A DNA stretch of 64,000 bases from Catajapyx aquilonaris (lineage: Eukaryota): contig JYFJ02000726.1 in the NCBI GenBank assembly GCA_000934665.2, positions 1 to 64,000 of the forward strand, in the 5' to 3' direction. Below are positions 62,048-62,928 of this stretch, piece after piece (position 1 is the stretch's first letter; every line of letters starts with the position of its first letter). Made by a program: the position numbers and the translations under genes. Under the pieces are notes generated by a model that ran no database searches, had not been told where the DNA came from, and saw only the letters and a list, made by a program, of their open reading frames with translations.

Positions 62048-62743
62048 ATGTCTGCGCTACCACCTCCTGGACTTCCGCCGCTTCCGAAAAGCTTAAGTGG
62101 ACATTTAGGATTGTTGCAACAGCAAGCGAACTCGTCCCTGCAACCAGCGTCGCACAGTCAGCCTTCTACACACCATCAACATCCGCATCCGCCAAAAGCA
62201 CCTCCCAAAGATCCGCCACCACCTCCACCTCCGCATCCACCAAAAGGTGCCCGCAGACGCAGCCTCCCAACCCATCCTGTTCATCATCCCCCGCCCCAAC
62301 CAGACCCCTCGCATTCATCACGTTCCTCGCCAGAAAGCACCCTTGGATTTTACCCACCAACTCCACAGCCTCGCAGCCAACAGCCCCAACAGCAGCAGTC
62401 GAGTAGCCGCCGTCGTTTGGATACCCAGCTGTCTCTCCTGAGGCAGGAGATGACTGGATTGCGACAGCTTGACCTCTCCCTACTGGCACAACTCTGGTCT
62501 CTCCATGAATCGATACAGGAGGTGAAGTCATTGCTGCGGGATCCTATGGTTGCCTCATCTGGCGTGGCACCACCTGTTGGTGGATGGGTTGACCTGGAGG
62601 GTCGACATTCCGATGCAAATTACTACATGGCCAGTGCCACCAATCCCTACGTGGGCATGAGGCTTGGACTGGGGCCACTGCCAGAACGTTACTCGCTGTC
62701 AAGCACGTCTTCCGAGTCGAGCATCGAGTTTGGAGAGGTTTGA
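62048..62743 (+). CDS. FAM89A: FAM89/LRAP25-family (LURAP domain) adaptor protein, 231 aa
   Basis: [11 protein letters not shown] motif and [37 protein letters not shown]; splice acceptor at about 62033 precedes the ATG. Confidence 0.85.
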
Positions 62744-62745
62744 AG

Positions 62746-62928
62746 ATGGATAAAGGCATGAGGAAACTCCCGTCGTGGATTACGGAGAAGGCGAAAGAAG
62801 AGGTGAAGCCAGAGGCACAGAAAGAGTGTGTCCCGGTTAAAGTACGGAAGGTCCAGTATGTGATGAGTCCTGACGAGCTGGGGCAAGCTGCTAGACTAGC
62901 GCTGGAAACTAGTAAGAAGGCTGAGTGA
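62746..62928 (+). CDS. CYREN: CYREN/MRI-like Ku-binding-motif microprotein, 60 aa
   Basis: RKLPSWI fits the APLF-type KBM R-x-L-P-x-W; VQYVMSPDELGQAARLAL resembles the MRI segment TVYCMNEAEIVDVALGIL (recalled, not aligned); AAGATGG start context. Confidence 0.6.
   Translation: MDKGMRKLPSWITEKAKEEVKPEAQKECVPVKVRKVQYVMSPDELGQAARLALETSKKAE

Follow-up and report, generated by a model that had tools for sequence, protein, structure and literature searches.

The Ku regulator MRI/CYREN (C7orf49) modulates non-homologous end joining (NHEJ) during the cell cycle and has a gene of its own, whose products include MRI1 of 157 amino acids (aa) and the microprotein MRI2 of 69 aa. The lemming locus of Drosophila encodes lmgA (Apc11) and lmgB (CG34441) in one dicistronic mRNA with a spacer of 92-165 nt between them (Nagy 2012, PMC3372440). 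In the current analysis we have identified features reminiscent of both systems in a stretch of 64,000 nt from Catajapyx aquilonaris (assembly GCA_000934665.2, contig JYFJ02000726.1, positions 1 to 64,000), which is referred to here as the window. A 60-codon open reading frame (ORF) near the end of the window, starting 2 nt after the stop codon of a FAM89 ORF, encodes a putative microprotein with a Ku-binding-type motif and lies on the same spliced RNA path as ANAPC11 and FAM89.

The minimal Ku-binding motif (KBM) has the core R-x-x-P-x-W, in which the tryptophan is essential, and the A-type (APLF-type) Ku-binding peptide of human MRI is SETKTRVLPSWLTA (PMC4831024). In human MRI1 the multimerisation domain (MuD) spans residues 49-81 and contains the strand 54-YCMN-57 and, behind it, a helix at 58-81 whose hydrophobic positions V64, L66, I68 and L69 have been mutated (10.64898/2026.07.22.740027). 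A third element, the XLF-like motif, consists of a basic patch followed by a conserved C-terminal phenylalanine (PMC4831024); the human microprotein isoform MRI2 is described as lacking it (10.64898/2026.07.22.740027).

In a rotifer, APLF is reported to have a region that binds Ku80, and the sites to which APLF binds are reported as conserved on Ku80, which implies that the interface between KBM and Ku80 is older than the vertebrates. The accessory factors of NHEJ are poorly known in arthropods, and the choice of repair pathway limits genome editing in these organisms. Neither an invertebrate MRI/CYREN nor an arthropod microprotein with a KBM was found described in the open-access papers and bioRxiv literature searched.

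A conserved microprotein downstream of FAM89

The microprotein ORF (P0001) extends over 62746-62928 on the + strand, and its frame is -1 with respect to the 231-aa FAM89 ORF at 62048-62743. The junction of the two ORFs (62741-62748, + strand) reads TGA-AG-ATG, with the stop codon at 62741-62743, AG at 62744-62745 and the start codon at 62746-62748. The microprotein begins MDKGMRKLPSWI and contains YVMSPDEL. A sequence-only reading of the window had drawn attention to this junction, to the 60-aa ORF in another frame and to its RKLPSWI and YVMSPDEL motifs, all of which are present in the letters as described. It had also remarked that there is no room for a promoter or a poly(A) signal between the ORFs, as is evident from a gap of 2 nt. 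In random sequence of the local composition an open frame of 60 codons is expected with P = 0.043, and the open frame by itself is therefore weak evidence for a microprotein gene.

A search for homologues among 1.84 billion representative proteins (E <= 0.001) gave three matches. Two of them, P0002 (63 aa, E-value 3.5e-5) and P0003 (61 aa, E-value 4.1e-5), share 50-51% identity with the microprotein from end to end and have their starts and stops at equivalent places. They are unnamed, free-standing proteins that begin 5-8 residues ahead of the KBM-like motif, and each comes from a single contig (900 and 898 nt, respectively). When the two were used in a reverse search, the sole match in the 64-kb window was the stretch 62758-62919, with E-values of 3e-10 to 3e-11. 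A profile search of a set of 5.8 billion gave P0002 and P0003 again and no others (2 of 23 candidates). The third database match, P0004, a repeat protein of 587 aa, was dropped as spurious, having no matched stretch. A scan of metagenomes with the alignment of the microprotein family resulted in 240 pattern matches, none of which was confirmed.

Twenty-two columns are invariant in the three members of the family and are clustered as two blocks. The first block includes R6, L8, P9 and W11, and the second K32, R34, K35, Q37, Y38, V39, M40, S41, P42, E44, L45, A48, A49, R50, L53, E54 and K58, with the consensus KxRKxQYVMSPxEL..AAR..LE. The K/E-rich linker between them varies within the family. 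Two invariant blocks joined by a variable linker form the pattern of a two-module protein and not that of drifting non-coding DNA, and the two relatives with equivalent starts and stops raise the ORF above chance. Judged by this conservation, the 60 codons belong to a real and conserved gene for a microprotein, in agreement with the sequence-only reading, which had proposed a translated ORF.

The Ku-binding-type motif

The first module of the microprotein is the A-KBM-like motif R6-K-L-P-S-W-I-T13 (62761-62784, + strand), which lies close to the N-terminus in the context MRKLPSWITE. The R, L, P and W of its general form, RxLPxW[I/M], are those invariant across all three members. Compared by eye and at the level of the motif, RKLPSWIT is identical in 6 of 8 positions to RVLPSWLT of the human MRI peptide given in PMC4831024. 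The residue following the tryptophan is M in P0002 and P0003 and I in P0001; it is reported to be M in the MRI of most species and in APLF, and to raise the affinity more than 30-fold (10.64898/2026.07.22.740027). A short helix is placed on residues S10-T13 of the microprotein by AlphaFold2 (AF2), and in human MRI residues S15-Q20 have been observed by nuclear magnetic resonance to turn helical on binding of the Ku80 vWA domain (10.64898/2026.07.22.740027).

The six frames of the window contain 11 copies of the core RxxPxW, with 8.2 expected, so that the core is uninformative on its own. The extended form R.LP[SQ]W[MIL], a pattern defined post hoc from the family, occurs once in the window against 0.01 expected. 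By its conserved residues the microprotein is regarded as bearing a Ku-binding-type motif, which would dock into the pocket of the Ku80 vWA domain as in MRI/CYREN, APLF and WRN. The KBMs of APLF and WRN have the same R-x-x-P-x-W core with a basic residue ahead of it, and M is preferred after W in APLF. APLF and WRN are large and have several domains, and their KBM is internal or terminal, whereas the protein described here has 60 aa and no FHA, PBZ or helicase domain. A Ku gene was not found among the 25 long ORFs scanned in the window. If the motif binds Ku, the microprotein is a candidate for an end-joining regulator of MRI/CYREN type in an invertebrate.

The YVMS-helix module and the linker

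The candidate self-association module comprises Y38-V-M-S41 and the helix at residues 42-59 (62857-62922, + strand) and is delineated by invariant residues and by the AF2 model. The helix of 18 residues, in a block with a predicted local distance difference test (pLDDT) score of 82-94, is the sole confidently predicted part of the microprotein. The layout, 38-YVMS-41 followed by the helix, resembles that of the multimerisation domain of human MRI1 as described in 10.64898/2026.07.22.740027, and this module may likewise self-associate through a strand and a helix. Prediction of a microprotein homodimer gave a score of 0.03, the mark being 0.32, which is evidence neither way, and the hydrophobic-moment profile is uninformative. 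The charged linker of variable sequence that would join the KBM to the YVMS-helix module is probably disordered, residues 17-23 having a pLDDT below 50 in the AF2 model. From sequence and model together, the architecture reads as an MRI1 reduced to a Ku-binding motif and a self-association module. If the motif binds Ku, the microprotein would represent a minimal natural MRI1, with only the KBM and the self-association helix, that could help to tell apart what each module does.

A tricistronic transcript path of lemming type

In one public run, 85% of the words sampled from the stretch are present, and the RNA results below come from this one run of one study. Five introns, three with GT..AG ends on the + strand and two on the - strand (CT..AC as read on the + strand), are absent from the contigs of the run, which otherwise match the window at 100% identity; the run's own kind is unstated, and it is on account of the missing introns that its contigs are taken as RNA-derived. 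A path through a contig is not proof of one molecule, rare isoforms are dropped from contigs, and depths are means per contig.

The spliced contig that contains all the reading frames (61555-62992, + strand) is 1266 nt long after removal of three introns with confirmed GT..AG ends, and its exons are 61555-61624, 61678-61797, 61859-61975 and 62034-62992. The coding sequence (CDS) of ANAPC11, the lmgA-like gene (61594-61974, + strand; 88 aa), lies on three exons (61594-61624, 61678-61797 and 61859-61974), with introns at 61625-61677 and 61798-61858 and the stop codon TAA at 61972-61974. The translations of its exons 2 and 3 match the Pfam family zf-ANAPC11 (RING-H2) with E-values of 1.6e-12 and 2.7e-15. 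The third intron is intercistronic (61976-62033, + strand; 58 nt, GTAGAA...TTGCAG), and the contig is spliced from 61975 to 62034. Once it is removed, the FAM89 ATG is 15 nt instead of 73 nt away from the ANAPC11 stop, and this stop lies 1 nt from the exon junction. The acceptor of the FAM89 exon, 14 nt ahead of the AUG, is spliced in cis at 62033, and the only donor seen is that of the ANAPC11 exon.

The single-exon, lmgB-like ORF on the + strand at 62048-62743 matches the Pfam LURAP family PF14854 (E-value 3.9e-10), which bears out its assignment to FAM89 in the sequence-only reading. On the mRNA, ANAPC11 occupies positions 40-306 (88 aa), FAM89 322-1017 (231 aa) and the microprotein 1020-1202 (60 aa). 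A single RNA path thus leads from an upstream ORF (uORF) overlapping ANAPC11 as AUGA through 15 nt to FAM89 and through 2 nt to the microprotein, for which the RNA data show no separate transcription unit. The sequence-only reading had proposed a bicistronic unit; the small ORF does lie on the RNA path of FAM89, but ANAPC11 is also spliced onto the FAM89 exon, so that the path is tricistronic, with ANAPC11, FAM89 and the microprotein.

The first 400 nt or so of the FAM89 ORF (mRNA 322-724, about 62048-62450), a region rich in P, Q and H codons, contain no ATG in any frame.

FAM89B, also known as LRAP25, is an adaptor between MRCK and LIMK. PF14854 is present in every one of the 28 relatives obtained for the FAM89 ORF from the database. 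Their names include lemming B (Haematobia), lmgB (Eurosta), CG34441 (Drosophila busckii), FAM89A (Glossina and Petrolisthes) and leucine repeat adapter protein 25 (Neocloeon). An N-terminal stretch is shared with the fly proteins, and the N-terminus, the LURAP core and the C-terminus with the mayfly and crab proteins, which the C-terminal SSESS[IV]EFG[EN]V-stop matches to the last residue. Best matches of this kind suggest that the DNA is from a pancrustacean arthropod. By this family relationship lmgB is a member of the FAM89/LURAP family, and since the FAM89 ORF here falls in the lmgB family the locus is of lemming type. On the same grounds it is the counterpart of Drosophila lmgA/lmgB with a third cistron added.

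In both loci ANAPC11 comes first and FAM89/LURAP second, on one mRNA and in different frames, with a short leader and spacer. The spacer is 15 nt here after removal of the intron and 92-165 nt in the flies, and a third conserved ORF is present here 2 nt beyond the second. The tail of FAM89 is of the mayfly and crab type here, whereas fly lmgB has a long tail. The 3' region of the fly transcript is given as 1231 nt (PMC3372440), and here RNA cover extends past 64000 on a separate contig. No recognisable homologues of lmgB outside Drosophilidae were reported in 2012 (PMC3372440). A paper linking FAM89 with ANAPC11 polycistrony was not found in the literature searched. The present locus indicates that the lemming dicistron, Apc11 with the "orphan" lmgB, reaches well outside Drosophilidae and that a lemming unit can hold a third coding frame.

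Beyond the microprotein stop no AATAAA or ATTAAA is present up to 62992. Another contig of the run (62988-64000), with a mean depth of 32.6, begins at most 5 nt from the end of the tricistronic contig, whose depth is 9.3, and continues unspliced past the end of the window. It could represent a long 3' untranslated region (UTR) like that of fly lmg, or a different transcript.

Four other FAM89 loci were recovered, of which L001 and L004 are complete with downstream sequence and L002 and L003, with one exon each, are uninformative. L004, a metagenome contig of another organism, has the order uORF-ATGA-ANAPC11, a spacer of 31 nt and FAM89, without introns, and from this the ANAPC11-FAM89 unit appears widespread. 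In L004 an AATAAA at 421-426 falls within the 31-nt spacer, immediately ahead of the FAM89 ATG, and ANAPC11 could through it be expressed there from a monocistronic mRNA. In L002, the stretch 1529-1573 weakly resembles the second motif of the microprotein (E-value 0.22); it lies in an ORF of 27 codons without a KBM and was judged a chance match.

Comparison with MRI/CYREN

The microprotein resembles MRI/CYREN in being small and mostly disordered, in having an APLF-type KBM near the N-terminus with M, I or L after the tryptophan, and, with regard to MRI1, in having YxM[S/N] directly before a helix. In size it is close to MRI2 (60 and 69 aa). It differs in the absence of an XLF-like motif at the C-terminus and of an acidic tail, and no similarity at the profile level has been found. 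The linker between the motifs is shorter, with a distance of 27 residues from W to Y, by residue numbers, as against 38 in human MRI (10.64898/2026.07.22.740027). The microprotein is the downstream cistron of another gene's mRNA, whereas MRI has a gene of its own, and the host is an invertebrate, whereas the conservation of the KBM described in PMC4831024 covers vertebrates.

The designation CYREN-like given in the sequence-only reading is retained in part. The N-terminus matches the A-KBM peptide of MRI, but a match to the MRI profile, longer relatives and the XLF-like motif were not found in the searches described below. The term is used here as a label at the level of the motif and does not denote demonstrated membership in the MRI/CYREN family, from which the microprotein may have descended as an orthologue of MRI. 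That the microprotein works like MRI is a reasonable inference from the two motifs.

Possible modes of translation of the third ORF

Ribosomes would terminate on the UGA of FAM89 and restart 2 nt downstream on the AUG of the microprotein. From the FAM89 start to that of the microprotein there are seven intervening AUGs, which make leaky scanning unlikely, and ANAPC11 contains another six. The context of the microprotein start is strong, with A at -3 and G at +4, and the gap of 2 nt supports coupling. A small downstream ORF, a stop and a start within a few nt of each other and many upstream AUGs are also found in calicivirus VP1/VP2, influenza B M1/BM2 and the human overlapping-ORF mRNAs of Gould 2014. 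In comparison with these the present junction, UGA-AG-AUG, is non-overlapping and has no UGGGA, stable structure or Rfam element. The human mRNAs have been reported to reinitiate without elements of this kind (Gould 2014, PMC3923131). The locus offers a cellular mRNA with a 2-nt stop-start after an ORF of 231 codons, a tractable case for the study of reinitiation past long ORFs in animals.

The uORF of 11 codons (61562-61597, + strand; MFMVHPKAGWR and a stop) overlaps the ANAPC11 start with its TGA as ATGA, and the same overlap is present in L004 (uORF 131-145, ATG at 142). Shuffled leaders reproduce it in 0.12 and 0.16 of the trials, so that the overlap is weak support for reinitiation. It may represent a conserved translational control of ANAPC11.

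Alternative explanations

The explanation considered best overall, a two-module microprotein with a Ku motif carried as the third ORF of a lemming-type mRNA, is held at about even confidence, and a number of observations on the protein and on its translation weigh against it. The KBM core is common, being found in more than 600 human proteins, for which a caution is given in PMC4831024, as well as 11 times in the six frames of the window. No Pfam MRI match was obtained for any of the three members at E <= 10, the presence of the MRI model in the library being unconfirmed; the family gave weak, unrelated Pfam matches to AAA_lid_10 (0.039), HSP9_HSP12 (0.15), CUL7_CUL9_N (0.032) and Nbs1_C (0.14). 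No relative of 112-2000 aa was present among 4130 longer candidates, and there is consequently no bridge to the 157-aa vertebrate MRI. A profile search of the PDB gave two chance-level matches (a tail protein, E-value 0.061, and another, E-value 1.2), and the protein atlas no usable match for P0001 or P0002. The C-termini of the three members, KKAE, KKTE and KKK, contain no aromatic residue and hence no XLF-like motif. In a register anchored on the Y and set by eye, of the four helix positions mutated in human MRI1 (10.64898/2026.07.22.740027) only one falls on a large hydrophobic residue of the microprotein, L53, and these hydrophobic positions of the human helix are mostly occupied by A or R here. 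These findings, with no profile, structure or intermediate sequence tying the microprotein to MRI, are also what would be expected of a real protein unrelated to CYREN/MRI, in which RxLPxW does not bind Ku and is due to convergence or coincidence. Such a protein could have another role, for example with FAM89 or ANAPC11, as co-transcription with these genes could mean a shared function. This explanation is considered rather unlikely in view of two independent motifs, arranged as they are in MRI1 with regard to both order and relative position, which are invariant in all three members while the linker varies; the extended motif is moreover identical to the MRI peptide in 6 of 8 positions, and the residue after W follows the preference of MRI and APLF for M. 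Still more doubtful is a true pre-vertebrate orthologue of MRI/CYREN, encoded in this lineage by the third cistron of the ANAPC11-FAM89 (lemming) mRNA and produced through coupled termination-reinitiation. If this were true, the Ku regulator would be much more ancient than is suggested by the distribution in vertebrates given in the MRI papers cited, and the output of a cell-cycle modulator of NHEJ would be hard-wired, through a stop-start relay, to the transcription of the catalytic subunit of the anaphase-promoting complex/cyclosome.

With regard to translation, reinitiation after long ORFs is described as normally inefficient without an element of the TURBS (termination upstream ribosome binding site) type (review PMC10275272). 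The last 150 nt of FAM89 contain no UGGGA, Rfam gave no match, and the fold is not out of the ordinary, with a z-score of +0.82 and an equally good or better fold in 164 of 200 shuffles. In Drosophila, translation of lmgB from the dicistronic cDNA was reported as undetectable, lmgB as dispensable and monocistronic RNAs as existing, and 5' rapid amplification of cDNA ends placed ends inside the locus (PMC3372440). The contig path here may also combine more than one molecule. The microprotein with its Ku motif could therefore be real and made from a shorter RNA of its own, with the 2-nt gap as mere compaction, and this is tentatively regarded as possible. Such an RNA would come from a start or processing site within the FAM89 CDS, or from splicing of an upstream exon onto the AG of 62744-62745, and would resemble the internal 5' ends, the monocistronic RNAs and the silent downstream cistron of the fly locus; a rare isoform of this kind would be omitted from the contigs. 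The sequence-only reading had correctly noted that no pyrimidine-rich acceptor precedes the ATG. This is a weak argument, as the RNA-supported acceptor GTTGAACCGCAG of the same locus is not pyrimidine-rich either, and the AG before the ATG may on this account serve as an acceptor. Against a shorter RNA, the sole RNA path crosses FAM89 into the small ORF without a joint or loose end at 62745, the small ORF lies on the ANAPC11-FAM89 contig of depth 9.3 and not on the downstream one of depth 32.6, and a promoter in the sequence coding for the conserved C-terminus of FAM89 would be constrained. For trans-splicing of a spliced leader, loose ends were seen neither at 62033 nor at 62745 in the contigs, which cannot show minor 5' ends. 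Termination-reinitiation is held only slightly above an internal start or a processed shorter RNA. Of the two complete FAM89 loci, L001 and L004, neither has a KBM-bearing ORF after FAM89, and L001 has no ANAPC11 within 567 nt upstream of it. Conservation of the stop-start spacing in relatives, named as a check in the sequence-only reading, is not borne out by these loci, and the FAM89-microprotein arrangement is thus not generally conserved. The same absence, together with P = 0.043 for the open frame, would suit a chance, untranslated frame in the FAM89 3' UTR. This is very improbable given two relatives of 50% identity with matching start, stop and length, since non-coding sequence so diverged would lose the frame, and given the blockwise conservation. 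A fusion of FAM89 with the KBM by -1 frameshift or alternative splicing is scarcely credible. The small ORF, in the -1 frame with respect to FAM89, is indeed preceded by 51 open codons that reach back to 62593, but no canonical slippery heptamer is present in 62560-62742 and the relatives are free-standing proteins of 61-63 aa, which make a frameshift fusion unlikely; the RNA contig has no joint there, and the C-terminus of FAM89 is kept to the last residue in the mayfly and crab proteins.

Other features of the window

A spliced divergent gene, the product of which starts MAAFGLAPPQ, is encoded on the - strand at 60850-61459, with introns of 56 and 60 nt. Its RNA contig stops at a distance of 96 nt from where the ANAPC11 contig begins, which suggests a compact bidirectional promoter between the two genes. 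Other exons in the window encode RRM (465-1355), MORN-repeat (5783-6508), helicase C-terminal (9026-9748), LRR (17048-18804) and sybindin (TRAPPC4-like; 34337-34843) domains, an ordinary neighbourhood of animal genes.

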